Assembly: GCA_002728755.1 (NCBI GenBank)
Contig: PBVT01000100.1
Span: 4,484 to 68,483 of the forward strand
Length of the DNA: 64,000 nt
DNA from: Myxococcales bacterium
Lineage (GTDB): Bacteria; Myxococcota_A; UBA9042; UBA3505
Reading direction: 5' to 3'
A program made the position numbers and the translations under genes. The notes under the pieces were generated by a model. It was not told the DNA's origin. It ran no database searches and worked only from the letters and a program-made list of their open reading frames with translations. Shown in pieces: positions 2,969 through 61,866 of this stretch; the stretch's first letter is position 1; the number at the start of each line of letters is the position of its first letter.

Positions 2969-4642
2969 TCAGAGATACCCAGGATCGGTATAGCTGGTCC
3001 AGACGTCACGAAATACGTCGCTTATTTCACCGACCGTAGCGCCTGCTCGCGCCGCGTCGAGAACGGCCTCCATCAGATTATCGGTTCCCTCACAGGCGGC
3101 TCGTACTTTTTCGATCGCTTCTGCATGGGCCGCAACGTCACGGCGTTCTTTGAACTCTTTGAGTCTTTCCAGCTGGCTCGCCTCAACTTCCGTCTCGATC
3201 TCCAGCGTGGGTATGGACGACTCGTCGCTTTCGACATAGCGGTTCACGCCCACCATGATCTGGTCTTCATCTTCCAGCTGTCGTTGGAATTCATACGCGC
3301 TACGACCAATCTCTCGCTGGGGCCAGCCCTGCTCTACCGCCTCAACCATTCCACCCAGAGCATCAATCTTTTCGATAATTGCCAAGGCTTCGGCTTCCAT
3401 CCGGTTGGTGAGATCCTCTATGAAATACGAACCGGCGAGGGGATCAACCGTATTGGTCACACCCGTCTCATCGGCAATCAACTGTTGGGTGCGAAGCGCC
3501 AGCCGGGCCGCGTCTTCCGTGGGCAAGGCGTAGGTCTCATCCATGCTGTTTGTATGAAGAGACTGGGTCCCACCGAGTACAGCCGCGAGGGCCTGAATCG
3601 CCACCCGTACAACATTGTTCATCGGTTGCTGTGCGGTCAACGACACGCCCGCCGTCTGCGCATGCGTACGAAGCATCAACGACTTGGGGTTTTTGGCGTT
3701 GTACCGTGACTTCATAAGCCGCGCCCACAAGCGCCGTCCTGCTCGGAACTTGGCGATCTCTTCAAAGAAGTCGTTATGCACGTCAAAGAAGAAGGAAAGA
3801 CGAGGCGCAAAACTGTCCACATCGAGACCGGCCTCAATCCCTGAATCGACGTAGGCCAGCCCATCGGCCAGCGTAAAGGCCAGCTCCTGAACCGCCGTCG
3901 CTCCCGCCTCCCGAATATGGTAGCCACTAATCGAGATCGTATTCCAGCGCGGCATATGCTTGGTGCAATAGACGAGCATATCGCGAATAATACGCATGCT
4001 GGGACGGGGTGGTACGATCCACTCTTTCTGCGCGATAAACTCTTTCAAGATATCCGCTTGGAGAGTGCCCCCCAGCTTATCGGGTGTAATCCCACGCTTC
4101 TCGGCAACCGCAACGTAATAGGCCAAAAGGATAATTGCGGGTCCATTGATCGTCATCGACGTCGTGACCTTTGTAAGGTCAATCCCGTCGAATAAGCGCT
4201 CCATATCCTCCAGGGTGGCGACAGAGACACCTTCGCGGCCCACTTCTCCAAGACTAAGAGCGTGATCTGGATCGCGTCCCATGAGCGTCGGCATATCAAA
4301 AGCCGTCGACAATCCAGTCTGGCCGGCTTCAAGTAACATTTTGAAACGTCGATTCGTGTCCTCGGGCGTACCAAAACCAGCAAACATACGCATGGTCCAG
4401 AGTCGACCACGGTACATGGTGGGATACGGACCCCTGGTAAATGGATATTCTCCAGGCAGGCCAATCTGGTTCATATACTCTTCATCCAGATCTTCAGGAA
4501 CCCCCAGTAGGGGAACACTCAAACCCGACATGGTGGAAAAGGACGACTTCCTCTGTGTCCATTTTTCCGCTACATGTTTTTCCCATTCGGGAAGGGAAAT
4601 TGTCGAATCGTTGCCCTTGTCCGTCATTGGCCTACCCTTCAT
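2969..4642 (-). CDS. Methylmalonyl-CoA mutase family, catalytic (substrate-binding TIM-barrel) subunit without a fused B12-binding domain
   Basis: 557 aa. Conserved MCM catalytic-domain motifs are present (…[34 protein letters not shown]…[15 protein letters not shown]…). The length matches the stand-alone large subunits such as the IcmA/MeaA/McmA N-domain. Confidence 0.85.
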
Positions 4643-4748
4643 TTTTCGAAGGCTGATTTACCATGTATGACGTTGGAAACACAACGAAAAACAAGTGTAA
4701 TAACACGTCCCATACCCTCTGGAATCCCACAGAAACAGCGTATGCACG

Positions 4749-4777
4749 TTGACACTCAAGTTCGTCGCACGTAAAAG
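4749..4777 (+). promoter_or_regulatory. Sigma70-like promoter for nuoA: TTGACA-N17-TAAAAG
   Basis: Perfect -35 TTGACA at 4749-4754, a 17-nt spacer, and -10 TAAAAG at 4772-4777, placed 52 nt upstream of the nuoA ATG. Confidence 0.4.
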
Positions 4778-4793
4778 GGCGCTAGCGCCCTTT
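4774..4793. promoter_or_regulatory. Perfect 20-nt palindrome AAAGGGCGCTAGCGCCCTTT overlapping the -10/+1 region of the nuoA promoter; candidate operator or 5' UTR hairpin
   Basis: Read directly from the sequence. It lies between the divergent mutase and nuoA genes, so a terminator role is unlikely. Confidence 0.4.
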
Positions 4794-4828
4794 ATCGCAC
4801 TTCACGACCCGTCGTCCCAAGTGAACGA

Positions 4829-5209
4829 ATGAACCCTATATATGATCCATATCTACCTCTGGGTATTTTATTGCTCCTGGCCATCGGTCTTGGACTGGCA
4901 ATCATCTTCCTGAATGGCATTCTAGGTCCGAAGCGGATGTCGAAGGAAAAGTCCACTCCCTTCGAATGCGGGAATGATCCAGGAACAAATCCGCGTCAAC
5001 GATTCGACGTAAAGTTCTATCTCACAGCCTTATTCTTCATCATTTTTGATGTGGAAGTGGTCTTTCTCTTTCCCTGGGCAGTGCTTTATCGAGAGCAGTT
5101 GCTAGCAGGGAATGGCTGGTTTTTCTTTGCAGAGATGGTGTTCTTCCTTGGAATCCTGACGGTAGGCCTCGCCTATGTCTGGAAACGTGGCGCGTTGGAT
5201 TGGGAGTAG
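4829..5209 (+). CDS. nuoA: NADH-quinone oxidoreductase subunit A
   Basis: 126 aa with three TM helices and conserved NuoA motifs (PFECG…DVEVVFLFPWA). Confidence 0.9.
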   Translation: MNPIYDPYLPLGILLLLAIGLGLAIIFLNGILGPKRMSKEKSTPFECGNDPGTNPRQRFDVKFYLTALFFIIFDVEVVFLFPWAVLYREQLLAGNGWFFFAEMVFFLGILTVGLAYVWKRGALDWE

Positions 5210-5213
5210 AGTT

Positions 5214-5726
5214 ATGAGCGATGCCCTCGTCAAAGCTATACAGTCCCGCTTCGGAGACGCCGTCCTGGCCAGCCATGCTATGGCTGGCGACGATACCGTT
5301 ATCTTACGCAAGGACTCCCTGGTGGATGTCTGCCGGTATCTCCGAGAAGACCCATCGTGCCAGATGGAAATGTTGGTCGATGTCACGGCCGTCGATTGGC
5401 AGGATAAAAAAGAAGAACGCTTCGAGGTCGTGTATCACCTGCACAGCCTCTCGCTGAACCACCGTCTTCGAATCAAAGTCGGTGTATCCGAAGATGACCT
5501 TACTGTTCCAACCCTGACAGGGGTATGGCGTGGCGCCAATTGGCCGGAACGAGAAACCTGGGACATGTATGGGATTCGATTTGATGGACATCCCGATCTC
5601 CGAAGACTCCTTCTCTACCCAGAGTTTGAAGGTCATCCACTTCGGAAGGACTACCCCGTGCGCGGGTACCAACCACTGGTAGAGATGCCGTCTCTTCCTG
5701 TCGATCGCGAAGATTCTGAGGAGTAG
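5214..5726 (+). CDS. nuoC: NADH-quinone oxidoreductase subunit C (30 kDa)
   Basis: ATG at 5214 lies 5 nt after the nuoA stop. NuoC family motifs are present (…ERETWDMYGIRFDGHPDLRRLL…). Confidence 0.9.
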   Translation: MSDALVKAIQSRFGDAVLASHAMAGDDTVILRKDSLVDVCRYLREDPSCQMEMLVDVTAVDWQDKKEERFEVVYHLHSLSLNHRLRIKVGVSEDDLTVPTLTGVWRGANWPERETWDMYGIRFDGHPDLRRLLLYPEFEGHPLRKDYPVRGYQPLVEMPSLPVDREDSEE

Positions 5727-5733
5727 ATCGGCC

Positions 5734-6945
5734 ATGACTGTATACGGAAAAGAAGGACACACGACGGTTGACCATCTGCATACCCGCGAGATGGTGCTCA
5801 ATATGGGCCCATCCCACCCGGCCATGCACGGAACGGTCAAAATGATTCTCACCCTCGACGGGGAAACCATCAAAGATGCCGACATTCATGTGGGTTATCT
5901 TCATCGGGGATTCGAGAAGATGTGCGAGGAGCAGACCTGGAATCAGGTCATGCCCTATACAGATCGCCTCAACTACTCGTCGCCGCTGATCAATAATATG
6001 GGCTATGCGATGGCCGTAGAAAAGATCGCAGGCATCGAGATCACCCCACGGTGTCGATGGATTCGAACTCTAGCGTCTGAGCTAAGTCGCGTTACCGACC
6101 ACATCACCTGCATTGGTGCGCAGGCTCTCGAATTAGCAGCCTATTCTCCCTTCCTATACGGAGTCGAGGCTCGTGAGTTGCTCTACCAGCTCATCGAAGA
6201 GCTTACCGGCGCGCGACTCACAGTTAGCTATGCTCGTATTGGCGGGCTGCGACACGATCTGACGGATACTTTTGAGGCCCATTACCGCGAACGGTTACCT
6301 CGAATACATCAGCTCATGGAAGATGTTCACCGCCTGCTAACAAAGAATCGTATCTATTATGATCGTATGGCAGGAACAGGAGTCATCTCGGCAGAGGATG
6401 CCATCGACTATGGTTTCTCCGGCCCAGTACTACGCAGTACTGGCGTCGCCTATGATGTACGAAAAAATGCCCCCTATCTTGCGTATGGTGACGTCGACTT
6501 TGAAGTACCAGTCGGTAGTGAAGGGGATAATTACGACCGGTATCTGATCCGTGTTGAAGAGGTGAAACAATCTCTCAGCATCATCGATCAATGCTTCAAG
6601 AATATGCCCGACGGTCCCGTAAATATTGAAGACTGGAACGTGGTCCTGCCTCCGAAAGAAGAGGTCTACAACACCATTGAGGGGATGATCGCCCATTTCA
6701 AGATCATCATGCACGGAAGTGATATCCCCGAGGGGGAAGCGTACAGCTACGTGGAAGGTGCCAACGGTGAGTTGGGCTTCTATGTAGTCAGTGACGGCGG
6801 CCGTGGCCCATACAAAATGCACGTACGTGGACCGAGCCTGCATCTGATGCAGGGGATCCATGAAATGATGCTCGGCGGCATGATCGCCGACCTTGTACCT
6901 ACTTTCGACTCGATCAATATGATCGGGGGCGAAATTGATCGCTGA
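5734..6945 (+). CDS. nuoD: NADH-quinone oxidoreductase subunit D (49 kDa)
   Basis: 403 aa. Motifs LNMGPSHPAMHGT…RGFEK…DR and a C-terminal …HVRGPS match NuoD and [NiFe]-hydrogenase large-subunit homologues. Confidence 0.9.
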   Translation: MTVYGKEGHTTVDHLHTREMVLNMGPSHPAMHGTVKMILTLDGETIKDADIHVGYLHRGFEKMCEEQTWNQVMPYTDRLNYSSPLINNMGYAMAVEKIAGIEITPRCRWIRTLASELSRVTDHITCIGAQALELAAYSPFLYGVEARELLYQLIEELTGARLTVSYARIGGLRHDLTDTFEAHYRERLPRIHQLMEDVHRLLTKNRIYYDRMAGTGVISAEDAIDYGFSGPVLRSTGVAYDVRKNAPYLAYGDVDFEVPVGSEGDNYDRYLIRVEEVKQSLSIIDQCFKNMPDGPVNIEDWNVVLPPKEEVYNTIEGMIAHFKIIMHGSDIPEGEAYSYVEGANGELGFYVVSDGGRGPYKMHVRGPSLHLMQGIHEMMLGGMIADLVPTFDSINMIGGEIDR

Positions 6946-6954
6946 GTGATATCC

Positions 6955-8550
6955 ATGCCGACGCTGAAGATAAATGACCAAGAGGTTACCGTCGAACAGG
7001 GAACCACTGTACTCAAGGCCGCAGCCGAGACCGGAGTAGAGATCCCGACGTTCTGTTACCACCCGGGACTCTCCGCACCGGCCAACTGCCGTATGTGCCT
7101 TGTAGAGATTGACGGTGGTCGTGGTCCCCAACTCATGCCTGCCTGTTATACCCAGGCCGGTGAGGGTATGGACGTAAAAACGGACAGCCCCACGACGAAA
7201 GACGCGCAGAAGTCGGTGCTGGAATTCATCCTGCTCAACCACCCTGTGGATTGTCCCATATGTGACCAGGCAGGAGAATGTACTCTGCAGGATCACTACT
7301 TCGACTATTCGGCCCAACCCTCTCGACTTCGGCACACCAAGGTACATAAACCCAAGGTGAAGGTGCTGGGTCCCAACATTGTTCTGGATGCAGAGCGATG
7401 CATTCTATGTACTCGCTGCGTTCGGTTCTGTGATGAAGTCACCGAAACGCACGAACTACGCGTCACGCAGAGAGGGGACCATAGTGAGATCACAACCTTC
7501 CCTGGGCTCGATCTCGATAATAAGTATAGCCTTTGTACCGCAGATATTTGTCCCGTCGGTGCACTGACCAGCCGAGGATTCCGATTCAAGGCTCGTGTTT
7601 GGAACAACAAACGCACTAAGAGCGTCTGTGACCAATGCGCACGGAACTGCTCCACTTTTGTGGACACCCTTCGAAACGACGTCAAACGAGTCAGCCCTCG
7701 TACGAACGAAGAGGTCAACAGCTGGTGGGCCTGCGACGAGGGGCGTACTGCCTTCAAAAAATATCAGGAAGGCCGGTATCTGAAGGGAGTCATCTCCCAC
7801 GAAGGAACCACGAATGAGTTGGCACCATCGGATAGCTATCATCGCCTTGGAAGCCAGCTGAGCCAGACGGTAGAAGCCCACGGTGGAGAAGCCGTCGGTA
7901 TTCTTATTCACCCCTCCTGGTCGAACGAAGATATCTTTGTAGCGGCTCAATTCGCTATGGAGGCCGGCTTTAGCCTCTATGTGGGAGGACGGGCTACGGA
8001 TGGGTATGAAGACAACATCCTGATCCGTGGTGATAAGAACGCGAATCGATACGGTATGAACCTCATACTCGAGGCTATGGGAGTCAAACATGGTGGCGTG
8101 GATAGTCTGGCCGCCGCTATCGAGGCTGGCACCATCCGCACTCTTTTGATTCTGGATGGCGAACATGCCCTACCCGAATCCGTCATCACATCCATCGGCC
8201 AGGTTGAGAAAGTGATCGCATTGGCTGCTTGGCAAACACCCATTTTGGATGCTGCACATGTAATCGCGCCTACCCGCCTTGTGTATGAACGTGGTGGTAC
8301 CTTCGTAAATTTCGAAGGTCATATACAGCGGTTCCATAAGACGCAGATGCACGACGTCAATATTCTATCTCCTTGGCACGCCCTCTCGACCATCGCGCGA
8401 GCCGGTGGCTGGGATATGCAATACGATCGTATATCCGACGTCTTTGCTGGAATGGCGGAGATGGTCCCACGGTTTGCTGGGCTCGCCTATCAAGAATTGC
8501 CGGATGACGGAGTTACCACCGTCCAGGCCGCGTCTACAGGAGCGGTCTAA
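6955..8550 (+). CDS. nuoG: NADH-quinone oxidoreductase subunit G (75 kDa), short form
   Basis: N-terminal 2Fe-2S ferredoxin fold (CYHPGLSAPANCRMC), His-ligated 4Fe-4S motif (HPVDCPICDQAGEC) and CILCTRCVRFC are present. At 531 aa the C-terminal molybdopterin-like domain is much reduced. Confidence 0.85.
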   Translation: MPTLKINDQEVTVEQGTTVLKAAAETGVEIPTFCYHPGLSAPANCRMCLVEIDGGRGPQLMPACYTQAGEGMDVKTDSPTTKDAQKSVLEFILLNHPVDCPICDQAGECTLQDHYFDYSAQPSRLRHTKVHKPKVKVLGPNIVLDAERCILCTRCVRFCDEVTETHELRVTQRGDHSEITTFPGLDLDNKYSLCTADICPVGALTSRGFRFKARVWNNKRTKSVCDQCARNCSTFVDTLRNDVKRVSPRTNEEVNSWWACDEGRTAFKKYQEGRYLKGVISHEGTTNELAPSDSYHRLGSQLSQTVEAHGGEAVGILIHPSWSNEDIFVAAQFAMEAGFSLYVGGRATDGYEDNILIRGDKNANRYGMNLILEAMGVKHGGVDSLAAAIEAGTIRTLLILDGEHALPESVITSIGQVEKVIALAAWQTPILDAAHVIAPTRLVYERGGTFVNFEGHIQRFHKTQMHDVNILSPWHALSTIARAGGWDMQYDRISDVFAGMAEMVPRFAGLAYQELPDDGVTTVQAASTGAV

Positions 8551-9566
8551 TGACGACGTTAATCCTGTATGCCCTTCTCAAGATCGCCGGATTTGTTCTC
8601 GGATATGTAATGCTTACGGCGACTCTGCTGACGTGGATCGAACGTAAGCAGAGTGCCCTCGCACAGGACCGCATCGGTCCGGCTCGTGCATCGATTATGG
8701 GTCTACGCCTGGGCGGGCTACTCCATATTCCGGCCGACGCCATCAAGAGCTTCACCAAAGAAGACTTCATACCAGACACGCCGAACCCCTGGCTCTTCAA
8801 GTTTGCACCGGTAATCGCCTTTATCCCCGCGTTCGTTATGTTCGCAGTGATTCCCTTCGGCCCAGGAGATTTGATCATCAGCTCGGCTTCCTTTGGAGTC
8901 CTGTTCATACTCGCTGTGACAGGAATCTCCGTTTACGGGGCCACTCTCGCCGGCTGGGCTAGCAATAGCTCTCTATCCCTTCTCGGAGGGTTACGTGCCG
9001 CGGCCCAGATGATCTCGTATGAAGTTACGATGGGTTTAAGTCTTGTAGGCATATTCATGGTCTACGAAGATGTGAACCTGCAGAATGTGGTCATCCGACA
9101 GGGCTCCAACGTCCTAAATTGGGGGATCGTCACGCAACCTCTCGCGTTCTTCTTGTTCCTGGCCGCGGTCATCGCGGAGACAAAACGAGGTCCCTTTGAT
9201 GTGGCAGAAGGCGAAAGTGAGCTCGTCGCGGGTTATTTCACCGAATACAGCGCCATGCGCTTTGCCATGTTTATGCTCGGTGAATTCATCGCAATCGTAG
9301 GTGTATCGGCGGTCCTCGTGACCTTCTTCCTCGGTGGCTGGCAAGTCCCCGGCCTGGAAGAAACCGGCGGATGGTACACCGTCCTACAGGTCAGCGCGTT
9401 TGCGTTGAAGACCTGGTTCCTTTGCTGGCTCCAGCTTATGATACGCTGGACTCTGCCTCGTTTTCGCTATGACCAGATCATGCATCTGGGCTGGCGGATC
9501 CTCCTCCCCTTAAGCCTTCTGAACGTACTCGTAACGGGCATCGTTCTGGCCATTATCCACGGATAG
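8550..9566 (+). CDS. nuoH: NADH-quinone oxidoreductase subunit H
   Basis: 338 aa polytopic membrane protein with the NuoH/ND1 signature (…WIERKQSALAQDRIGP…EYSAMRFAMFMLGEF…). The ATG overlaps the nuoG TAA by 1 nt. Confidence 0.9.
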   Translation: MTTLILYALLKIAGFVLGYVMLTATLLTWIERKQSALAQDRIGPARASIMGLRLGGLLHIPADAIKSFTKEDFIPDTPNPWLFKFAPVIAFIPAFVMFAVIPFGPGDLIISSASFGVLFILAVTGISVYGATLAGWASNSSLSLLGGLRAAAQMISYEVTMGLSLVGIFMVYEDVNLQNVVIRQGSNVLNWGIVTQPLAFFLFLAAVIAETKRGPFDVAEGESELVAGYFTEYSAMRFAMFMLGEFIAIVGVSAVLVTFFLGGWQVPGLEETGGWYTVLQVSAFALKTWFLCWLQLMIRWTLPRFRYDQIMHLGWRILLPLSLLNVLVTGIVLAIIHG

Positions 9567-9571
9567 AAACC

Positions 9572-10126
9572 ATGACAGCGACCGTAAAAAAAGTGGAACG
9601 CGTCGTTCCCGATCTTGCGATGAAGGCCTATGTACCTGCCATTCTTGAGGGACTGGGTGTAACGACCCGGCACTTCGTGCAGAACCTTGGGAATCTCGTT
9701 TCGGGTCGCAAGAAGTCCAAGCGAGGAACGGAGGAGATCGCGACCATCCGATATCCCGACGAGAAGAGAGAATATCCACCTCGTTATCGCGGACACCATC
9801 GCTTGATGCGCCGTGAAGACGATCAAGTTCGATGTGTAGCCTGTTTCATGTGTTCGACCGCCTGCCCGGCCAACTGTATCTATATCGAGGCAGGGGAACA
9901 CGAAGATCCAACCATCGAAAAGTTCCCAGTGCGCTTCGACATCGACCATCTGGTCTGCATCTACTGCGGTATGTGCGAAGAAGCCTGCCCATGCGACGCA
10001 ATTCGAATGGACAGTGGTGAACATACCAAGCCCAAGTATTCACGCACGGACCAACGAGTGCATCTGGTTGACCTGCTGGAACGCGGCGGCCCCAGCATCG
10101 CCAAACAGGGCGGTCGTTTCAGCTGA
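9572..10126 (+). CDS. nuoI: NADH-quinone oxidoreductase subunit I (2x[4Fe-4S] ferredoxin)
   Basis: Two CxxCxxCxxxCP motifs (CVACFMCSTACP, CIYCGMCEEACP). Confidence 0.9.
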   Translation: MTATVKKVERVVPDLAMKAYVPAILEGLGVTTRHFVQNLGNLVSGRKKSKRGTEEIATIRYPDEKREYPPRYRGHHRLMRREDDQVRCVACFMCSTACPANCIYIEAGEHEDPTIEKFPVRFDIDHLVCIYCGMCEEACPCDAIRMDSGEHTKPKYSRTDQRVHLVDLLERGGPSIAKQGGRFS

Positions 10127-10133
10127 ACATTCC

Positions 10134-11069
10134 TCAGCCGGCGTGTTCCTGATCTTCTAGCCAACGCTCGAGATCAAGAGCGGCCTGACAGCCAAGACCA
10201 GCGGCGGTTACCGCTTGCCGGTAGCGATGATCGACACAATCGCCCGCAGCGAATACGCCCGGGATATTCGTCATCGTATGGTCTTCCGGAACGATATATC
10301 CAGATTCGTCCAGATCGATGATCCCACGGAAAATCTGGGTCGTCGGATCGTGACCGATGGCGAGGAACAATCCTTCCAACGCGATCGTAGACTCTTCACC
10401 GCTCTGGGTGTTTTCCACCTTAAGCCCTACGACCTCACGCCCGGTCTCGGTAAGCACTTCCGTGACGCTATGGTTCCAAAGGAACTCAATCTTGGGATTG
10501 GCCAACGCACGGTCTTGCATAATCTTGCTGGCGCGAAGCTTGTCGCGCCGATGAATCACGGTCACCTTGCTCGCAAATTTCGTCAGGAAGTTCGCCTCTT
10601 CCATGGCGGAATCACCACCACCGACAACGGCGATCTCTTTATCTTTAAAGAAGAACCCATCACAGGTTGCACAAGCCGAAACGCCGTAGCCCTTAAGGCG
10701 GGTTTCACTTTCAAGACCCAGCCAACGAGCCTGGGCGCCGGTCGCGATAATAACACCTCGACCCTTTACGACCTCCTGTTCGTCGACCGTGATGGCAAAC
10801 GGACTACTCGTAAAGTCCACAGATGTCGCAGAGCCGAACCGGCATTCGGTGCCAAAACGCTCAACCTGTTCCTTGAATTTCTGCATAAGCTCTGGGCCCA
10901 TAATCCCATCCGGAAATCCGGGATAGTTTTCCACGTCCGTGGTGATCATGAGCTGCCCACCCACCTCGATACCTTCGAGCAGCAGTACGCTGAGGTTGGC
11001 TCGTGAAGCATATAAGGCTGCGGTATAACCGGCTGGTCCGCTACCAAGAATTACAACATCGTAGATCAT
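10134..11069 (-). CDS. trxB: Thioredoxin-disulfide reductase
   Basis: FAD motif GSGPAGYTAA, redox-active CATCDGFF, NADPH motif; 311 aa. Confidence 0.9.
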   Translation of the reverse strand: MIYDVVILGSGPAGYTAALYASRANLSVLLLEGIEVGGQLMITTDVENYPGFPDGIMGPELMQKFKEQVERFGTECRFGSATSVDFTSSPFAITVDEQEVVKGRGVIIATGAQARWLGLESETRLKGYGVSACATCDGFFFKDKEIAVVGGGDSAMEEANFLTKFASKVTVIHRRDKLRASKIMQDRALANPKIEFLWNHSVTEVLTETGREVVGLKVENTQSGEESTIALEGLFLAIGHDPTTQIFRGIIDLDESGYIVPEDHTMTNIPGVFAAGDCVDHRYRQAVTAAGLGCQAALDLERWLEDQEHAG

Positions 11070-11117
11070 TCATCTCTCCATCTGGGAGTCACTCGCAGGA
11101 TTGGGCGAGCGCTCCGG

Positions 11118-11471
11118 TCATAGCAATTCTTCTATCCGCTCGGTTGGTCGAGCCACAACGGCCCGGTCACCTTGAATAACAATGGGTCGTTCGATCAGGC
11201 GTCTATGTTCCAACATGGCCGCCAGGATCACGCTATCTTCCGAATCGGTCGCGCTGAGTCCCAACTCGCGACTTATGGCCTCTTTACTGCGAAGCAGTTC
11301 TCCTGGCCGATAACCGAGAAGACCAAGCACCTGTTCGATATCATCCGCCGTTAAATCGGCGCTCATATACTCGAACACATCGGGTTCCATACCGCGATCG
11401 CGCAGGAAACCCAGGGCCGCACGTGACTTACTGCAACGAGGGTTGTGCCATACACGAAAACTAGCGCTCAT
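11118..11471 (-). CDS. ArsC/Spx-family protein (arsenate reductase/YffB-like)
   Basis: Family match on the motif VWHNPRCSKSR… over roughly 117 aa. Confidence 0.7.
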   Translation of the reverse strand: MSASFRVWHNPRCSKSRAALGFLRDRGMEPDVFEYMSADLTADDIEQVLGLLGYRPGELLRSKEAISRELGLSATDSEDSVILAAMLEHRRLIERPIVIQGDRAVVARPTERIEELL

Positions 11472-11601
11472 GAAGAAACTCCATTTCAACCGATCCCGAA
11501 GGGATCCGTGTCATAAATTCATCAATTACGCAACGGTGATTCACGTTCTCCACGGGCGGTGAACAATCGCCCCGTAGAGAGAGTCATGCGGAGCCCATAT
11601 T

Positions 11602-12195
11602 CTAATGCATAGCTGGGCGAAGAGGAGTCTCCAGAAGGATCTTTTTCTCCAACTCTTTCATCTCTGCAAAACGCTTCCGTGTCCGATCTGCATCTTCCAG
11701 ACGAGCCAAGTCGTAGAAGACTCGACCGTGGGTCGCTTCCGCGGAAGCAAAACGTCCGAACATCTCCTTCAGATCTGCATCGGGGTGGTGTTCTGCCAAT
11801 AGCTGTAACCGCTCACAGGATCGCGCCTCAATCAGGGCGGAAACGAGTAGACGATCGATATACCGCTCGATCCGTGTCCCCTCCACTTCATCGACCAGGG
11901 CCTTTGCATAGGGATCGCCAAGATCCGGACCGAGCTCCCATCCCCGATCCGTTATCTTTTGGTGCACCTCCGCAAAATGACCCAACTCTTCCTGCGCCAA
12001 TTCAGCCATGGCGGCTACAAGCTCTGTCTTCTCTGGATATCGAGAGATCAGGCTCAAAGCGGTGCCAGCGGCTTTTCTCTCGCAATGGGCATGATCCTTC
12101 AAGAGGGCTTCCGTATTCGCTAAAACCAATTGCAGCCATTCACGATCGTGTTGCGCTTTATCTGGTTGCATGGGTCTACTCCTTTCCAGGCCCAT
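11602..12195 (-). CDS. miaE: tRNA-(ms2io6A37)-hydroxylase MiaE-like ferritin-fold di-iron protein
   Basis: The motif DHAHCERKAA…EELGHFAE resembles the MiaE signature DHLxCExKAA / EExxH. Confidence 0.55.
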   Translation of the reverse strand: MGLERSRPMQPDKAQHDREWLQLVLANTEALLKDHAHCERKAAGTALSLISRYPEKTELVAAMAELAQEELGHFAEVHQKITDRGWELGPDLGDPYAKALVDEVEGTRIERYIDRLLVSALIEARSCERLQLLAEHHPDADLKEMFGRFASAEATHGRVFYDLARLEDADRTRKRFAEMKELEKKILLETPLRPAMH

Positions 12196-12928
12196 CGAAC
12201 GGCCGTTGCCCTGTGGCTATCAAACTCACGCCAAACGGGAGATTAATATGACGAAGGAGATGTCGCTCCCCTCCGAGGACCGATTCAAGAAGACCATTGA
12301 TGGCACGTGGCATTACCTTCACATCGCTTGAGGCTGCATCGCCCTCTTCCACCGTTTTCGACCCGATTAATCGCTGGGCAACCCGGACGGACGCGATGGG
12401 AGGAAATAGGAAAAAGTTGTAGTAGGAGATCCGCGGGACTTCAAAACCGCCCCCTTGAAGCAGGTTCTTGAAGGCCTTCTTTCGGTAGCGACGGTGATGA
12501 CCCAGCGCCACATCGTGCTCCGACCAGAGAAACTGCCAGGCGGGTACTGTGCTGATCAATATGCCCCCGGGCTTCAATATTCGATACAGCTCCTCTACTG
12601 CTTTCTCGGGATGTTCCAAATGCTCGAGGATGTCGAGACAAAAGATCAGATCGAACTGCTGGTCTTTCAGCGGAAGCTCTTCGGCGTTTGCCTGGATTAA
12701 TTCTGCGTTGGGTGCTCGTTCTCGGGCTAGTTCCAGACATAAAGCCGCGCGATCGATTCCCACAATCCGTGGTAGATGCGAGAGCCAACTCAAGGTTGTA
12801 CCGGGCCCACACCCCACATCGGCCACCCGCAGCTTTTCCAATCCACCGCCGACAGCATCGTTGGCCCAGTTCAGAATTACCCGACGGGTACCCCGAAACC
12901 AGAAGTGGCGGTCCATGACCGCCGCCAT
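12176..12928 (-). CDS. Class I SAM-dependent methyltransferase
   Basis: Motif I VADVGCGPGTT and post-I motif FDLIFCLDILEHL. The likely start is MAAVMDRHFWFRG, which avoids overlap with pepP. Confidence 0.75.
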   Translation of the reverse strand: MAAVMDRHFWFRGTRRVILNWANDAVGGGLEKLRVADVGCGPGTTLSWLSHLPRIVGIDRAALCLELARERAPNAELIQANAEELPLKDQQFDLIFCLDILEHLEHPEKAVEELYRILKPGGILISTVPAWQFLWSEHDVALGHHRRYRKKAFKNLLQGGGFEVPRISYYNFFLFPPIASVRVAQRLIGSKTVEEGDAASSDVKVMPRAINGLLESVLGGERHLLRHINLPFGVSLIATGQRPFDGPGKE

Positions 12929-12948
12929 CTGACGGATCTCGGAGGCCT

Positions 12949-14277
12949 TCACGACAGTACCGGCATTTCCAGTCCTGCCTCTTGCATCGTAGCTTCGATG
13001 TCTTCGCAGGTCTTCGGACAACTCGAAGTCAGATTCTCGTGTCCATCGGCCGTTACCAGAATGTCGTCTTCGATCCGGATACCGATACCTCGAAATGCTT
13101 CGGGCGCGTGCTCGTCATTCTCGGCGACATACAGACCCGGCTCGACGGTGAAAACCATATCAGGCTCGAACGGTCGAGGATCGGGACCCACGGCGTAGCT
13201 CCCTACATCGTGCACATCCAATCCCAGCCAATGACTCGTACGATGCATATAGTAGCGTCGGAAATCTCCACCATGGATTACATCCTGGAGGGTTGATTCG
13301 AAGAATCCCAGATCAAGAAGTCCCTGCGACAGAACTTCAATCACGCGGGAATGCAGAAGTTCCAGGGTTGCCCCTGGTTTCACCAGATCCAGGGCTTCTT
13401 GTTGTGCCTCAAGAACCAGGTTGTAGAGATCGCGCTGCGGTCCCGAGAACTTGCCATGGATGGGATAGGTCCGGGTTATATCCGATGCCATACACTCCAC
13501 TTCGCAACCGGCATCCACCAGAACCAGATCCCCGGAACAAAGCTTTTCCCGGTTGGTATCGTAGTGTAGAACGGTCGCGTTGGCGCCACCAGCAACAATA
13601 CTATTATAGGCATTGCCGGCACCACCATGGGAACGGAACCCGAATTCAATCGCACCCTGCAACTGGTACTCGTACAAACCAGGCTTAACCGATTGCATGC
13701 CCAGAACATGTCCTTTGACCGCGGCATCCGCCGCGCTACGAAGGAGCATATGATCTTTCTCGTCTTTGAAGAGTCGAAGCTCTGATAGGAACGAAGCCAG
13801 ATCGAGCCATACATCGGGGCCGGACCGATGCAATCGTGGGCGAGTCCAATGTCGACGAATCACGCCGATCAAAGTTTCATCCATCGATGTATTTCGGCCC
13901 AACTCATAGGCTATATGGTCAACATTGGTGAGGTATTTGGTGAGGGCTTCCGTCCAGGAGTCGATCTCCACCGCATGATCCATCCCATAGTCCGCGACAG
14001 CTCCCTCTGGACCTGCTCGGCGACCGGTCCACACCTCTTGTTCCGGGTTGCGAGGTTGCACTCCAAGAATAGAGAGAACCTCGTCGTCCGTCTTAACGAG
14101 CAATAAGATCGCGTCCGGTTCCGGGAACCCCGTCAGGTATTGGAAGTTGGAATCCTGGCGAAACGGGTACGTTACATCCGAATTCCGATCCGCAATACGC
14201 CCCCCGGGAATGACCGCCAATGTCCGGTCTGGAAGCATATTGAGAAGTTTCTTTCGGCGTTCGGCATATACGCTCAT
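12949..14277 (-). CDS. pepP: Xaa-Pro aminopeptidase (aminopeptidase P, M24B)
   Basis: 442 aa with an N-terminal creatinase-like domain and a pita-bread domain carrying metal ligands (…HRTSHWLGLDVHDV…). Confidence 0.85.
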   Translation of the reverse strand: MSVYAERRKKLLNMLPDRTLAVIPGGRIADRNSDVTYPFRQDSNFQYLTGFPEPDAILLLVKTDDEVLSILGVQPRNPEQEVWTGRRAGPEGAVADYGMDHAVEIDSWTEALTKYLTNVDHIAYELGRNTSMDETLIGVIRRHWTRPRLHRSGPDVWLDLASFLSELRLFKDEKDHMLLRSAADAAVKGHVLGMQSVKPGLYEYQLQGAIEFGFRSHGGAGNAYNSIVAGGANATVLHYDTNREKLCSGDLVLVDAGCEVECMASDITRTYPIHGKFSGPQRDLYNLVLEAQQEALDLVKPGATLELLHSRVIEVLSQGLLDLGFFESTLQDVIHGGDFRRYYMHRTSHWLGLDVHDVGSYAVGPDPRPFEPDMVFTVEPGLYVAENDEHAPEAFRGIGIRIEDDILVTADGHENLTSSCPKTCEDIEATMQEAGLEMPVLS

Positions 14278-42004: not shown

Positions 42005-42290
42005 TTTTCTTCTCAGACCTCAGACTACACTTTTACCAGCAGAGCCGTACACAAGCCAGAAACACTCAAGTCAAAACATATAATCCCATCCTATCCAACG
42101 TTTAGTTCGACAAACCAACGAATGAAATGATCTGCGTTCAACGCCACAAGCCAGAAAGTTAAACATCGTGTATCATACGGATACGACTACTTTTTTTGAC
42201 ACGAGGCCATTCCGGCCCAAAAATCGGCGCAGGTGGTTTCTACAATTTGAATATGGGGCAAGGCGGGTAACGCCGCTCGGCGGAGCAACA

Positions 42291-43346
42291 TTGGCAAGCA
42301 AGAATCTACTAGGGGTTGATATCGGTTCTCACACCATTAAGGTGGTGGAGATCAGTCAGACTAAGAAGAATGTGGAACTTCTTCGGTTTGGAGTGGCGGA
42401 GCTCCCATCGGACGCTATCGTGGACGGCGCGTTTGTGAACTTCCCTGTCGTAGTAGAGCGATTACGCGAGCTGCTTCGTAAACATAAGTTCAAGCAGAAG
42501 CGATGTGCCCTGGCCATTAGTGGAACAGCTGTCATCGTGAAGAAGATCAGTCTTCCGCAGATGACGGAAGATGAGCTCCAGGAAAGTGTGCAGTGGGAAG
42601 CGGAACAGTACATTCCCTTCGATATCAAAGACGTGAATGTTGACGTTGAAGTTCTGAACCAACATCCGGGTCAGGGACAAATGGATGTTCTACTCGTCGC
42701 CGCCAAGAAACAGGTCATTAATGATCATGTGGCGGTAGCCAGAGATGCTGGGCTGAGCCCAACAGTGATGGACGTCACAACCTTCACGGCCCAAAACTGT
42801 CTGGAATTGAATTACGGTAACTTCCCGAACGAGGTTGTCGCTCTCGTAAATATCGGGGCATCCAGCATCAACCTGAATGTCTTGGCTGATGGGACAACGG
42901 CCTTCACTCGGGACATCCTGGTGGGCTCTAGCGTAATCACGGAAGAAATCCAGAAGCGATTCAATCTCCCGTGGGATGAAGCGGAGCGATACAAAACTCG
43001 TACGCCCGATCAATTACCGAATCAGAGCCTCGCGCGCGAAATAAAGAAACTTGTAAAACGCGTAAGTGATACACTTGCTACGGAGTTGCAACGATCCCTT
43101 GATTTCTTTGCAGCTACAACAGCAAATATGCAGATAGCCAAAGTATACCTCTCCGGTGGAGGCGCAATGAATCCAGAGCTTGTGTCCGTAATTTCGGACC
43201 GCCTGGCCTTGCCCACGGAGATCGTCAACCCATTCCAGAACATCACGATCAACCCGAAGTTCGTAGACTTAGAGCTGCTGCGACATCACGCGGCACAACC
43301 GGCGGTGGCCGTAGGTCTGGCTTTACGACGGCAGGATGAACAATGA
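42291..43346 (+). CDS. pilM: Type IV pilus assembly protein PilM (actin-like ATPase)
   Basis: LLGVDIGSHTIKVVE… A TTG start at 42291 gives MASKNLLGVDIG, a canonical PilM N-terminus; the ORF-track start at 42168 is too far upstream. Confidence 0.85.
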   Translation: MASKNLLGVDIGSHTIKVVEISQTKKNVELLRFGVAELPSDAIVDGAFVNFPVVVERLRELLRKHKFKQKRCALAISGTAVIVKKISLPQMTEDELQESVQWEAEQYIPFDIKDVNVDVEVLNQHPGQGQMDVLLVAAKKQVINDHVAVARDAGLSPTVMDVTTFTAQNCLELNYGNFPNEVVALVNIGASSINLNVLADGTTAFTRDILVGSSVITEEIQKRFNLPWDEAERYKTRTPDQLPNQSLAREIKKLVKRVSDTLATELQRSLDFFAATTANMQIAKVYLSGGGAMNPELVSVISDRLALPTEIVNPFQNITINPKFVDLELLRHHAAQPAVAVGLALRRQDEQ

Positions 43347-44065
43347 TTCGCATTAACCTATTACCCGTACGCGAGCGACGAAAACGTCGTGCTGGAGCGC
43401 AACTCCTGGTCATTGGAGCTGCACTCCTCTTCGGACAGGTATATGGGCTTCAAATGGTCCATCAGCAGAAGAGCTCTCGCGTAGAAAAAATGCGAAAGCA
43501 GCTCAGAAAAACGCTCAATACAAATAAGAACCTTGAGGAGATCAAATCCGCTGCTACAGCAAAGGAAAGTGAACTCAAGAAGGTCAAGAATCAACTCAAG
43601 TCCTATACAAAACTTGAGGCCTACCGTTCCGGACCGGCCAATATGCTGCTTTTCCTCTCTTATGCTTTGAAAGTGCGTGCGTCTGACAACACCACCGCAC
43701 CCAAAGATGGGATTGGTAGCAAGATGGAAAAGAAGGCATTAACTTCCGCTGGTTGGCGCGTGATTCGTCGAGAAGATCCGGAGACGAACCTGGAGATCCC
43801 CGAATGGGACCCAAACCAGATCTGGATACGCAAACTCATACAGATGGAAGACGGTCTGGTGATCGAAGGTGTCGCTATCAATCATGAGTCGGTCGCTGAA
43901 TTCAGTCGTCGCTTAAGTACCGGCCCCTTCTTCCCGGAAATGAGACAAGTACAACAAAAGGAATTTCTCGATACACGTCTTGCACGCAAGACCATCCAAT
44001 ATCGGCTGGAATCCAAGATCGATTATGAACTTCCGGAATTGCCCGACGAGCCCGAACCTAACTAA
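43343..44065 (+). CDS. pilN: Type IV pilus assembly protein PilN
   Basis: MIRINLLP N-terminus, a single TM helix, and an ATGA overlap with pilM. Confidence 0.85.
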   Translation: MIRINLLPVRERRKRRAGAQLLVIGAALLFGQVYGLQMVHQQKSSRVEKMRKQLRKTLNTNKNLEEIKSAATAKESELKKVKNQLKSYTKLEAYRSGPANMLLFLSYALKVRASDNTTAPKDGIGSKMEKKALTSAGWRVIRREDPETNLEIPEWDPNQIWIRKLIQMEDGLVIEGVAINHESVAEFSRRLSTGPFFPEMRQVQQKEFLDTRLARKTIQYRLESKIDYELPELPDEPEPN

Positions 44066-44089
44066 TACCTAAGAGTAGATTCGAAAATT

Positions 44090-44893
44090 ATGGGTGCATT
44101 TCAAGAACAAATCCAAAGACTTTCGTCCCTGAGTATGGGCTCGAAGATACTGGCGTTTGTAGTCATATCACTACTCATCGATGCCGGTTTCTATCTGACC
44201 AGAATCAAACCCGCTCAGGGTGAGTTGGAGCAGATGTCCCGTGAGATTCGGAACAAGGGTCGAAAGAATAATACTTTAGAAAAGCAAGGGTTCGACAAGA
44301 AACTGAAAACCGCTTCTCTGAAGATCGAAGAAATCGAACGTGAACTCGCCAAACGAGAAGAGACCCTTCCCAAAGAGGAACGTATCGAAGAGCTCATCTC
44401 GGACCTGGAAAAACTCGCAGCCGTAAGTAATTTACAAGTTGGAGCCTACACTCGTCTGGCAAAGACCGTCTTTACTGGTGGTGGCACAAAAAAGAAGAAA
44501 AGGAAGAGCAAACAGAAGTTCGGACTGGTGCCAGTACAGATGAATGTTGAGGGGACAACAGAGAATCTCCTCAAATTCTTCTTATTATTGGGTAATCCGG
44601 ATGGAATGAAACGACTGGTAAGCATCAGTGATCTCCAGATCTCGTGGGCCAACCCATCTTTGGGCCAGAGAGGTGACTCTGTATTCGAGAACTGCGGACT
44701 GACCGACCAGGAACAAAATCTAGTAGATGATGAACGCCTCCGCCTCTCTCATAAAGAGCTGGTGGCGAAGTTAGAAGGCCTTTTGACGCAGGTATGTATT
44801 GAGAGACAGGGGCAAATCAAAGCCCAATTTACCGTAAACGCCTTCCAGCAGTTGAGCAAAGAGGAATTACGGCGCCTTAAAACTAAAAGATAA
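44090..44893 (+). CDS. pilO: Type IV pilus assembly protein PilO
   Basis: Single TM helix, coiled coil, and synteny with the rest of the pil block. Confidence 0.75.
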   Translation: MGAFQEQIQRLSSLSMGSKILAFVVISLLIDAGFYLTRIKPAQGELEQMSREIRNKGRKNNTLEKQGFDKKLKTASLKIEEIERELAKREETLPKEERIEELISDLEKLAAVSNLQVGAYTRLAKTVFTGGGTKKKKRKSKQKFGLVPVQMNVEGTTENLLKFFLLLGNPDGMKRLVSISDLQISWANPSLGQRGDSVFENCGLTDQEQNLVDDERLRLSHKELVAKLEGLLTQVCIERQGQIKAQFTVNAFQQLSKEELRRLKTKR

Positions 44894-44908
44894 GAATAGA
44901 GCGCGTAT

Positions 44909-45622
44909 ATGAAACAAATAATTCGACATACCCTGCTTTTTATTCTGGCCATTCTCATCGCATTTGCCACGGTTTCGTGTGGGGGCTCCGAGACAAAGAG
45001 CCTCAAAGAAAAAGACCGTGTTGTCGAAGCACGAAAGCAAAGTTCCGGCACAAAGACTCGTAGTAAGAAGTCAAAAAAGCGCCGAAAGAAAAAGAAGAAA
45101 AAATCCGGGGAAGAGTTGACTGGCCCATGGGCCTCCTACGCCAAGTATTTTGAGAAGTATCGCATACGTGGAACCAAATATGGTGTAACCAAGCCTGGCT
45201 TCTTCCACGATCCCTTCCGTCCTCGACTGAGTTTACTCCCCGACCGTCAGCGAACTGTCGATCTACTAACCAAACTGCAGCCGCTGGCCAGTGCTGGTGA
45301 TGGAGACGGAACCGATAGTGGCGAAACGATAGAAAAGACACCTCTTCAGCTGTATGCATTGGATCAATACCGTGTCACGATGATCAAGACCGGAATCATC
45401 CGGGCTGAGGCCGCACTCGTAGACCCCGACGGTCGTCTATGGACGATCAATATCGGGGATTCCGTAGGGAGCAACCGGGAATATGTGGAAGAGATTCGTC
45501 AATACGAAGTTCTTTTCCGTCGTCCTGGCCATCTCGAGCCCATTACAAAAAGCTTGAAGCCTCCGATTCTGGAGCTCGTCAAAAAATCAGACGAACATCT
45601 CCTTATGGAGGTCGGTCGATAA
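44909..45622 (+). CDS. pilP: Type IV pilus lipoprotein PilP
   Basis: Lipobox TVSCGGS, Lys-rich linker, C-terminal beta domain, and synteny. Confidence 0.7.
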   Translation: MKQIIRHTLLFILAILIAFATVSCGGSETKSLKEKDRVVEARKQSSGTKTRSKKSKKRRKKKKKKSGEELTGPWASYAKYFEKYRIRGTKYGVTKPGFFHDPFRPRLSLLPDRQRTVDLLTKLQPLASAGDGDGTDSGETIEKTPLQLYALDQYRVTMIKTGIIRAEAALVDPDGRLWTINIGDSVGSNREYVEEIRQYEVLFRRPGHLEPITKSLKPPILELVKKSDEHLLMEVGR

Positions 45623-45801
45623 AATCGACCCTCTTTCGAGCAAACATAGCGCGTGAAGGTTGGTTGTGGATCCATTTCTGCACCCAAACAAATCAGCAAA
45701 CTCGATGTCTAACGACACGATTTTGAATGAAATTCACCTATTTTTTTGACGGTTTGTCGAGGCAGGCTACGATTTTAAGTACGCATCGAGAGGAGTGTTT
45801 G

Positions 45802-55518: not shown

Positions 55519-55594
55519 GACGAATCGTAAAGATCGGTTTTGATCCTGGTGCGTATGTACCTTCATCGACATGTTCCCCGATGGAGGTTCCCCA

Positions 55595-60236: not shown

Positions 60237-60306
60237 AATGGAGACCTCCATCCATACCGATGGATGCAGCATAGCAAATAATGGCCCAGCACAACACCCG
60301 GACGCC

Positions 60307-61866
60307 CTAGAGAGGGATATTACCGTGCTTTTTCGATGGATTGCTGTCGCGTTTATTTTGCAGGTCCTCCAGGGCACGAATCAATCGAGGTCGTGTCTCT
60401 CGAGGGCGAATCACTGCATCAATATAACCCAACTCGGCGACCTTGAATGGATTCGCAAAGGTCTCTCGATAGTCGTCGACGAAGTCCGCCCGCGTCTTCT
60501 CTGGATCGTCCGACTCCGCGATCTCCTTTCGATACACTATATTCACCGCACCCTCCGGTCCCATAACGGCGACCTCTGCGAGGGGATAGGCAAAGTTATA
60601 ATCCGCCCGAATATGCTTGGATGCCATCACATCATAGGCTCCACCGTAGGCCTTCCGGGTAATCACGGTCACCTTCGGTACAGTCGCCTCTGCATAGGCG
60701 TAAAGAAGCTTGGCACCATGGCGAATGATGCCTCCGAATTCCTGTTCTGTACCGGGTAGGAACCCCGGCACATCGACCAGGGTAACGATCGGAACATTGA
60801 AGGCATCGCAGAGACGTACAAACCGCGCACCTTTCACAGACGCATCAATGTCGAGGCAGCCCGCCAGATGCATCGGCTGGTTGCCGACAATACCCACCGA
60901 CCGACCGCCTAGCCGACCGAATCCAACGACCAGGTTCTTGGCATATCCGGCATGAACCTCTAGAAAGCGGCCTTCGTCTACGATCCGACTTATGAGGTCG
61001 GTCATATCGTAGGGTTTATTGGGCTCAACAGGTACCAGGTTGTCCAGCTCGGGATCCTCTCGGTCCGACGGGTCCTCGGTACTTTGCATCGGCGGATCCT
61101 GCATATTATTGCTAGGCAGATAGTCCAGAAGCTCTCGGACTAGGGCCAGAGCCGCCCTCTCATTATCTACCGCAAAATGGGCCACACCCGACCGCGTGGC
61201 ATGGGTCGTCGCCCCACCCAACTCTTCCTTGGAGACCTCTTCATGGGTCACAGTCCGAATGACCTCAGGTCCGGTGATGAACATATGAGAGGTCTCACGT
61301 ACCATCACCACGAAGTCCGTAATCGCCGGAGAATACACAGCTCCACCAGCGCAAGGCCCAAGGATCAGGCTGATCTGTGGGATGACGCCACTCGCCATGG
61401 TATTTCGAAGGAATATATCCGCGTAACCCGCCAGGGACACAACTCCTTCCTGGATACGTGCACCACCCGAGTCGTTTAACCCAACGACCGGGGCACCAAC
61501 TTTCATGGCGAGATCCATGATCTTACAGATTTTTCGGGCATAGGCCCCCGATAGAGAGCCGCCAAAGACGGTGAAATCCTGGGCGAATAGATAGACCTGA
61601 CGGCCATCCACGCGAGCAGATCCTGTCACGACGCCATCTCCCGGGATTTTCTTCTTCTCCATCGAGAAGTCACTGCACCCGTGAACAACCAGTTTATCGA
61701 TCTCTTCGAAAGAGCCTGGGTCCACAAACGCATCAATCCGCTCACGAGCCGTTAATTTCCCAGCCGCGTGCTGTTTATCGATACGTTCTTGACCACCGCC
61801 GAGTTCCGCCTGTCGCTCAAGCGCTTCCAAACGGGTTTCCGTGTGCGTGGAGTCGGCCATACTCAC
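60307..61866 (-). CDS. pccB: Acyl-CoA carboxylase carboxyltransferase subunit (propionyl-CoA carboxylase beta chain/methylmalonyl-CoA carboxyltransferase family)
   Basis: 519 aa with tandem crotonase-like CT domains and conserved PccB/AccD5 motifs. Confidence 0.85.

Follow-up and report, generated by a model that had tools for sequence, protein, structure and literature searches.

A nuoB-less nuoA-C-D-G-H-I cluster from an uncultured marine bacterium labelled as Myxococcota very probably encodes part of a split-type complex I

In the 64 kb stretch of DNA analysed here (the window), six tightly packed genes in the order nuoA-C-D-G-H-I occupy positions 4829-10126 of the plus strand, flanked by a divergently oriented methylmalonyl-CoA mutase gene on one side and by convergent trxB on the other, and raise the question of whether such a partial set, with its short NuoG, belongs to an ordinary proton-pumping complex I. 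An initial annotation had regarded the cluster as fragmentary and the retention of NuoG without NuoEF as unusual. Gene identities were taken from Pfam and NCBIfam searches, and the family matches for all six nuo genes and trxB agree with the gene calls of that annotation:

2969..4642, minus strand: methylmalonyl-CoA mutase large-subunit gene (PF01642, E = 2e-223), divergent, a non-complex I gene that bounds the cluster on its 5' side
4643..4828, no strand: divergent intergenic region of 186 bp from the mutase gene to nuoA, inspected as sequence
4829..5209, plus strand: nuoA, membrane subunit, 126 aa (PF00507, E = 4e-37; 41% identity to E. coli NuoA)
5214..5726, plus strand: nuoC, 30 kDa subunit, 170 aa (PF00329, E = 5e-50; TIGR01961, 153.9 bits against a cut-off of 122.45)
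5734..6945, plus strand: nuoD, 49 kDa quinone-site subunit, 403 aa (NF004739, 482 bits against 360; TIGR01962, 470.5 against 459.35)
6955..8550, plus strand: nuoG, compact 75 kDa-type subunit, 531 aa (PF13510, PF10588, PF22117; TIGR01973, 382 bits against a cut-off of 470)
8550..9566, plus strand: nuoH, membrane subunit of the quinone channel, 338 aa (PF00146, E = 1e-104; NF004741, 306.5 bits against 305)
9572..10126, plus strand: nuoI, subunit binding the two 4Fe-4S clusters N6a and N6b, 184 aa (matched by several NuoI models, all below cut-off; 42% identity to E. coli NuoI)
10134..11069, minus strand: trxB (thioredoxin reductase), 311 aa (TIGR01292, 400.9 bits against 343.45), convergent, likewise a non-complex I gene, bounding the cluster on its 3' side

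Successive genes of the cluster are separated by 4, 7, 9, -1 and 5 nt, spacing that is consistent with a single operon; at the nuoG-nuoH junction, TAATG, the nuoG stop and the nuoH ATG share 1 nt, and the stops of nuoI and trxB are 7 nt apart. The gap from the nuoA stop to nuoC is 4 nt, not 5 nt as first reported, and leaves no room for nuoB, while nuoG follows nuoD directly with nothing in between, both as the initial annotation had seen. The nuoG frame is open from a GTG at 6946, and the called ATG at 6955 yields the 531-aa protein. Judging by position, the nuo promoter presumably lies in the mutase-nuoA intergenic region; no sigma-70-like consensus site was found in these 186 bp.

The NCBI labels of the protein cluster and its relatives are Myxococcales, Myxococcota or Deltaproteobacteria, and the host label is that of the depositors ('Myxococcales bacterium' for MBR58980.1 and for the related locus L002). 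Neighbouring genes encode Kelch, FHA/sigma-54 activator, PilQ and TSP3 proteins, all of which are common in myxobacterial genomes.

The six proteins are orthologous to subunits of the canonical 14-subunit complex I (E. coli Nuo, T. thermophilus Nqo and the mitochondrial core), with which they share the NuoG fold and the Fe-S and quinone ligands, although the window's genes are not colinear with the other eight and NuoG is shorter. Identity to the E. coli subunits is 31-42% for all six. NuoD and NuoH pass the complex I equivalog cut-offs of NCBIfam and fall far short of those for Fpo (FpoD, 343 against 600; FpoH, 248 against 475), and the quinone-binding residues of NuoD are kept, with H32 and Y81 aligning with H224 and Y273 of E. 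coli NuoCD. NuoG and NuoI fall under their equivalog cut-offs, NuoG because it is short; the top NCBIfam matches of NuoI are nonetheless NuoI models (NF004536, 100.9 bits; TIGR01971, 95.6 bits).

All six reading frames are intact. In comparison with the second species represented by L002 (dS 1.2-2.0), dN/dS is 0.025 for nuoA, 0.044 for nuoC, 0.017 for nuoD, 0.038 for nuoG, 0.033 for nuoH and 0.021 for nuoI. Values this low show that every gene of the cluster is under very strong purifying selection, and the genes look functional.

The short NuoG had been read as lacking most of the C-terminal MoCo-like domain. Residues are indeed missing, but "most" was an overstatement, with about 315 residues of the domain kept. 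The AlphaFold model (pLDDT 88.5) finds complex I 75 kDa/NuoG/Nqo3 chains as its top fold matches and aligns with the mitochondrial 75 kDa subunit from end to end (TM-score 0.72-0.74 when the 531-aa NuoG sets the normalising length); the missing residues are internal deletions and a short C-terminal trim. The protein is shorter by roughly 160 residues than the mitochondrial subunit, by about 250 than Thermus Nqo3 and by about 380 than E. coli NuoG. Its length is typical of its relatives, as the initial annotation had allowed it might be: the best 120 homologues measure 503-604 aa (coverage at least 91% in all 120), NuoG in 11 colinear A-to-N operons measures 499-557 aa and immediately follows nuoE-F, and the mean in clade C of complex I is 493 aa (Spero et al., 2015, mBio 6:e00389-15). 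On this comparison, a compact NuoG of 531 aa is what this enzyme lineage normally has and is not a truncation. The window resembles clade C in its NuoG class (about 500-560 aa; the mitochondrial, Thermus and E. coli counterparts have 690-910 aa) and in having NuoC and NuoD as separate proteins, a likeness of length and gene form.

The ligands for clusters N1b, N4, N5 and N7 are all present in NuoG. Among 36 homologues, C34/45/48/64, H96/C100/103/109, C149/152/155/199 and C225/228/232 are invariant, and C260, the fourth residue of the N7 motif (CxxCxxxC-x27-C), is kept in at least 90%. Spero et al. (2015) describe the N7 motif as common among clades D and E, which have a long NuoG, whereas here it occurs in a short one.

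The eight remaining genes are not at the locus, in agreement with the initial annotation. Across all 64 kb of the window, searches for NuoB, E, F and J-N were negative both by tblastn with the E. coli proteins (E <= 0.01) and by phmmer against a six-frame translation, and an HMM derived from 120 NuoB sequences of the Myxococcota type gave no match there (top score, E = 0.8). Separation of complex I genes is itself documented: they are not colocalised in 14% of the genomes encoding the enzyme (Spero et al., 2015), and in myxobacteria they form two clusters, nuoEFJKLMN and nuoIHGDBA (Thomas et al., 2008, PLoS One 3:e2103, PMC2330069). The window matches the latter arrangement in its Myxococcota label and compact NuoG, in having nuoA, C, D, G, H and I together in the same order with nuoG right after nuoD, and in the absence of nuoE, F and J-N from the cluster. 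It is unlike the published arrangement in lacking nuoB; the formula nuoIHGDBA names B and omits C, so the nuoB-less form departs from the publication, and no description of a nuoB-less myxobacterial cluster was found in Thomas et al. (2008) or in the other complex I literature examined. The window also shares with the 11-subunit NuoEFG-less enzymes (Chlorobi, cyanobacterial NDH-1, Desulfitobacterium) the presence of quinone-module genes without adjoining nuoE or nuoF. However, those enzymes have no NuoG, and their clusters include nuoB and nuoJ-N, the opposite of the window cluster on all three points, and this type was rejected.

The same arrangement recurs beyond the window. In every Myxococcota-type locus compared, A-(B)-C-D-G-H-I stands apart from nuoE-F-J-K-L-M-N, and nuoG after nuoD without nuoE, F and J-N is seen in 12 related lineages or loci. 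The initial reading of a fragmentary or unusual cluster is thus not supported, and, the split being both published and recurrent, finding nuoG away from nuoEF is normal for the myxobacterial group. An independent Tara Oceans contig (L001) carries an identical A-C-D-G-H-I cluster (100% identity), and L002 carries the nuoB-less cluster with an 87% identical NuoG; both share the window's flanks, with the mutase gene on the 5' side and trxB on the 3' side. The nuoB-less form is also present in two lineages at a greater distance, L063/L064 (NuoG 52% identical) and L153-155, and in a 9.29 Mb contig (L058, record OW818691.1) that is probably a whole chromosome, and it occurs in five lineages altogether, with a clean nuoA-nuoC gap of 3-4 nt in every such locus. 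These boundaries, the same on independent assemblies and on the 9.29 Mb contig, exclude an assembly gap as the cause of the missing genes, an explanation that the initial annotation had kept in reserve. By contrast, nuoB is in the cluster in seven of the loci compared: L059, L060 and L062 read A-B-C-D-G-H-I followed by non-nuo genes, L147 reads A-B-C-D-G-H followed by a DnaJ gene with no nuoI called, and L065-L067 agree with the split arrangement up to the limit of the contig or blast map. The flanking genes of the cluster vary between lineages.

Overall, the six genes very probably form one operon and encode part of a canonical proton-pumping complex I of the myxobacterial split type, with the remaining subunits encoded elsewhere; the cluster is ordinary for myxobacteria except that nuoB has moved out of it. 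In the uncultured marine host, labelled as Myxococcota, the operon would thus contribute part of an NADH:quinone oxidoreductase. The bulk of its quinone-reducing module would consist of NuoC, NuoD and NuoI, the membrane heel with the quinone channel would consist of NuoA and NuoH, and NuoG would be the Fe-S subunit wiring the flavoprotein to the quinone-reducing module. By analogy with cultured myxobacteria, from whose literature the second cluster nuoE-F-J-K-L-M-N is known (Thomas et al., 2008), we infer both the presence and the location of the missing genes: a second cluster elsewhere in the genome is expected to encode the NADH-oxidising NuoE/NuoF and the antiporter-like NuoJ-N arm, and nuoB, which encodes the subunit carrying cluster N2, is likewise expected at another site, with a single gene as the likeliest form. 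The full enzyme would then be assembled from the products of separate loci. This corresponds to the first alternative of the initial annotation, that the missing genes lie elsewhere, which we judge to be the right one. Stand-alone Myxococcota-type nuoB genes with no nuo neighbours do occur in other genomes (L145/L146, L150 and L151/L152); the stand-alone nuoB clade, in genomes of 71-73% GC, was tied to no genome carrying the nuoB-less cluster.

It is unlikely, and supported by nothing observed here, that the six genes are instead a paralogous partial module, with a full complex I operon elsewhere and the window providing alternative versions of the quinone module, heel and NuoG that borrow NuoB, NuoEF and NuoJ-N. 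Some myxobacteria do have extra nuo clusters, such as the third, green-sulfur-bacterium-like one of A. dehalogenans (Thomas et al., 2008), and the view of this genome is that of the 64 kb window. However, in cultured myxobacteria A-(B)-C-D-G-H-I is half of the sole myxobacteria-type enzyme and not a spare (Thomas et al., 2008). In a neighbour-joining tree, moreover, the NuoD proteins of split clusters form one group apart from those of the sampled colinear A-to-N operons, and the very strong purifying selection indicated for the six genes fits a primary enzyme.

We consider it very unlikely that the complex dispenses with NuoEF and that NuoG serves as the electron entry for a donor other than NADH, in the manner of Campylobacter, Fpo or cyanobacterial NDH-1. 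The physical separation of nuoG from nuoEF in this lineage and the absence of nuoEF within 64 kb would be compatible with such an enzyme, and alternative-donor variants of complex I are known (Spero et al., 2015). Those variants, however, lack NuoG or remodel it, whereas the NuoG described here has every ligand of N1b, N4 and N5, the set that takes up electrons from NuoF, and the same compact NuoG type is encoded directly after nuoEF in colinear operons. In addition, cultured myxobacteria with the split have nuoEF in their second cluster (Thomas et al., 2008), and no candidate gene for an alternative input is linked to the cluster in any lineage compared, the flanks being different. A related proposal, highly improbable in our view, is that the nuoB-less lineages assemble a new type of enzyme, in which the A-C-D-G-H-I set would keep NuoG without a flavoprotein, the compact NuoG would dock another donor, and NuoB would come from a separately regulated gene. 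An assembly or binning artefact, or a decaying, non-functional remnant, is scarcely credible: the source is a metagenome-assembled genome, a kind of assembly in which chimaeras can arise, but the recurrence of the boundaries from the mutase gene through nuoA...nuoI to trxB on the independent Tara assembly and in a second species, the same gene order in the 9.29 Mb contig, the clean nuoA-nuoC gap across nuoB-less loci, and dN/dS values of 0.02-0.04 with every frame intact all argue against it.

Taken as part of a split-type complex I, the locus carries small weight for complex I biology, being an uncultured marine case of an organisation described in 2008 and of a NuoG size class described in 2015. 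It does call for caution in annotation, as pipelines that require colocalised nuo genes or a NuoG above the full-length equivalog cut-off (382 against 470 bits here) would miscall such genomes. The new detail is one of gene order: nuoB lies outside the cluster in at least five lineages, a further fragmentation of the operon.

The nuo genes in the window, A-C-D-G-H-I, most probably make up one portion of a complex I gene set that is split between loci, in an uncultured marine bacterium labeled as a myxobacterium. The ORF list, together with Pfam and NCBIfam scans of the window, established six co-directional nuo genes, which lie between a divergent gene upstream of nuoA and a convergent gene downstream of nuoI:

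2969-4642, minus strand, methylmalonyl-CoA mutase gene
4829-5209, plus strand, nuoA
5214-5726, plus strand, nuoC
5734-6945, plus strand, nuoD
6955-8550, plus strand, nuoG (531 aa from its ATG; frame open from a GTG at 6946)
8550-9566, plus strand, nuoH
9572-10126, plus strand, nuoI
10134-11069, minus strand, trxB

Adjacent nuo genes are separated, in order, by 4, 7, 9, -1, and 5 nt and therefore form one compact operon; nuoC lies 4 nt beyond the nuoA stop, not 5 nt after nuoA as given in the initial annotation. An exact protein match was obtained for the ATG-start version of NuoG and none for the protein read from the GTG. Scanning the cluster for promoters and terminators gave no signal over the shuffled expectation.

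The lack of nuoB, nuoE, nuoF, and nuoJ-N in this cluster, as initially annotated, was borne out by dedicated searches: none of these genes was detected in the 64 kb window by tblastn with E. coli proteins or by phmmer against the six-frame translation, and a NuoB HMM built from 120 Myxococcota-type sequences returned only noise against that translation. A NuoE "hit" at 2-112 (E = 0.03) was rejected because its frame is stop-ridden.

Past the nuo cluster, trxB is followed on the minus strand (10134-13021) by an ArsC/Spx-family gene, miaE, and a gene for a class I methyltransferase. In the distant lineage L153-155, a trxB-like gene (L153 17887-18825) is likewise located downstream of the nuoB-less nuo cluster, at a distance of approximately 4.5 kb, a loose recurrence of the nuo-trxB linkage. 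Elsewhere, the window encodes a very long PilQ-type secretin (1660 aa; 45727-50709, plus strand) with AMIN, STN, Secretin_N, and Secretin domains, in a region of unusually strong AT skew (0.28-0.33). PilQ of M. xanthus has about 900 aa, and the secretin in the window looks much longer. Upstream of it, at 42168-45622, four co-directional small ORFs occupy the position expected for pilMNOP and are candidates for those genes. A protein of 734 aa that has ten thrombospondin type-3 repeats (58173-60377, minus strand) adjoins an 847-aa VIT and von Willebrand A protein (55571-58114, plus strand).

The nuo cluster is neither an artefact nor a remnant. An independently assembled Tara Oceans contig (L001) encodes a NuoG identical over all 531 aa, with the same neighbors, and a MAG of a different species, "Myxococcales bacterium CB27_Tmax.121" (L002), shares the layout of mutase gene, A-C-D-G-H-I, and trxB, its NuoG being 87% identical. 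Compared with L002, all six nuo genes of the window have a dN/dS of 0.017-0.044 at a dS of 1.2-2.0, indicating strong purifying selection in every one of them.

Among the matches listed, the closest NuoG homologs are all labeled Myxococcota, Myxococcales, or Deltaproteobacteria, and the gene context around NuoG homologs takes two forms, with nuoB in the cluster or without it. The order A-B-C-D-G-H-I followed by unrelated genes is found in three loci (L059, L060, and L062); L065-L067 agree with it as far as the contig or blast map extends, and in L147 a DnaJ gene comes after A-B-C-D-G-H, with no nuoI called. The nuoB-less form, A-C-D-G-H-I, is present in five lineages (the window, L001, L002, L063/L064, L153-155, and L058), and L058 sits on OW818691.1, a 9.29 Mb record that is probably a whole chromosome. 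Assemblies that carry the cluster include WGS project MDTE01, the MAG with MBR58980.1, CAUZEG01, and OW818691.1 (GCA_942493285.1). In both forms, nuoE, nuoF, and nuoJ-N are absent within 10 kb of all these nuo loci. The complex I genes of myxobacteria were described as two separate clusters, written nuoEFJKLMN and nuoIHGDBA, by Thomas et al. (2008; PMC2330069), and nuo genes are non-colocalized in 14% of complex I-encoding genomes (Spero et al., 2015; PMC4453560). Because relatives and literature agree, it is a known state in this group that nuoG lies apart from nuoEF and the quinone module apart from nuoJ-N, and a NuoG kept without NuoEF, initially considered unusual, is not so here. By analogy with the relatives, we infer that the partner genes would be present in the genome of this organism.

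Several neighboring observations concern other loci. Approximately 2 kb upstream of the nuo cluster on OW818691.1 lies a six-gene Mrp-type cation/proton antiporter cluster (L058 1-5818), consisting of a fused MbhD/MbhE/MnhB-type large subunit gene followed by Oxidored_q2, Proton_antipo_M, MnhE, MrpF, and MnhG genes. A Planctomycetia MAG (L003 10001-12760) encodes a short NuoG, 42% identical to that of the window, followed by nuoH, with no further nuo gene detected in the flanking 10 kb to each side. An Oligoflexales MAG (L013 6616-11970) has another non-canonical nuo arrangement, with a fused nuoCD followed by E, F, G, and I; nuoH was not detected between G and I.

The 531-aa NuoG is a clade-typical compact form. 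The initial annotation described it as short; the best 120 database matches are 503-604 aa long with query coverage of at least 91%, and the mean NuoG length in one complex I clade, clade C, is 493 aa (Spero et al., 2015). In colinear A-to-N operons from a metagenome scan, NuoG directly follows nuoE-F, and in 11 of these operons it is 499-557 aa long with the N7 motif present; therefore, the compact form functions alongside the flavoprotein. Across 36 aligned homologs, the ligands of N1b (C34, C45, C48, and C64), N5 (H96, C100, C103, and C109), and N4 (C149, C152, C155, and C199) are conserved, and in the N7 motif, CxxCxxxC-x27-C, C225, C228, and C232 are invariant and C260 nearly so. N7 was reported to be common in clades with the longest NuoG and may be needed to stabilize large NuoG subunits (Spero et al., 2015), whereas here the motif (residues 225-260) is conserved in a short NuoG family. 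The AlphaFold model has high confidence (pLDDT 88.5, pTM 0.86), and structurally it best matches the 75 kDa/NuoG/Nqo3 chains in solved structures of complex I, with query-normalized TM-scores of 0.72-0.74 and alignments extending over the whole target. In a sequence alignment with the mitochondrial subunit, residues 6-302 pair with 8-302 and 434-507 with 552-625. The protein is thus short of approximately 160 residues, some 120 of them central in the molybdopterin-like domain and some 40 C-terminal, and it does not lack most of that domain, contrary to what was initially proposed.

NuoD and NuoH exceed the NCBIfam cut-offs for complex I equivalogs, and the Fpo models score far under their own cut-offs. 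NuoD keeps both quinone ligands, with H32 and Y81 aligning with E. coli H224 and Y273; unlike antibiotic-producing Myxococcales, in which this His is changed to Ser (Degli Esposti, 2015), the His is retained. In a neighbor-joining NuoD tree, the window, L002, and L063 form one group, with L058 outside it.

Two NuoB protein searches yielded no nuoB for any genome with the nuoB-less cluster, and neither set of 120 best matches contained the NuoB of OW818691.1. In a metagenome scan with Myxococcota NuoB, most of the loci recovered were colinear A-to-N operons or A-B-C-D-G-H-I clusters; the others included a nuoB-nuoC pair with no further nuo gene within 10 kb (L120 9893-10958) and one solitary nuoB flanked by an FKBP isomerase gene and two-component system genes (L114 9974-10528). 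The latter was rejected as a lead on the nuoB of this lineage, its relatives being labeled Bdellovibrionota. Five contigs, two NCBI MAGs among them, carry members of a clade of monocistronic Myxococcota-type nuoB (P0228, P0236, and P0239), none with nuo neighbors:

L145 10001-10552 and L146 9297-9848, stand-alone nuoB
L150 10001-10546, stand-alone nuoB
L151 9231-9785 and L152 8864-9418, stand-alone nuoB

These NuoB share 81-85% identity with one another or with in-cluster NuoB. Their DNA has 71-73% GC, compared with 53% in the organism of the window, and its tetranucleotide similarity to the window is low (r = 0.45); therefore, these genes are not from that organism. No genome was found to combine a nuoB of this clade with a nuoB-less cluster. 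Stand-alone nuoB is thus a real configuration in other genomes, which does not prove it for the lineage of the window. For M. xanthus nuoB, a literature search by locus tags gave no further detail. We found no description of nuoB relocation, a minor variant of gene order, in the cited complex I literature; the split and the short NuoG have both been described before.
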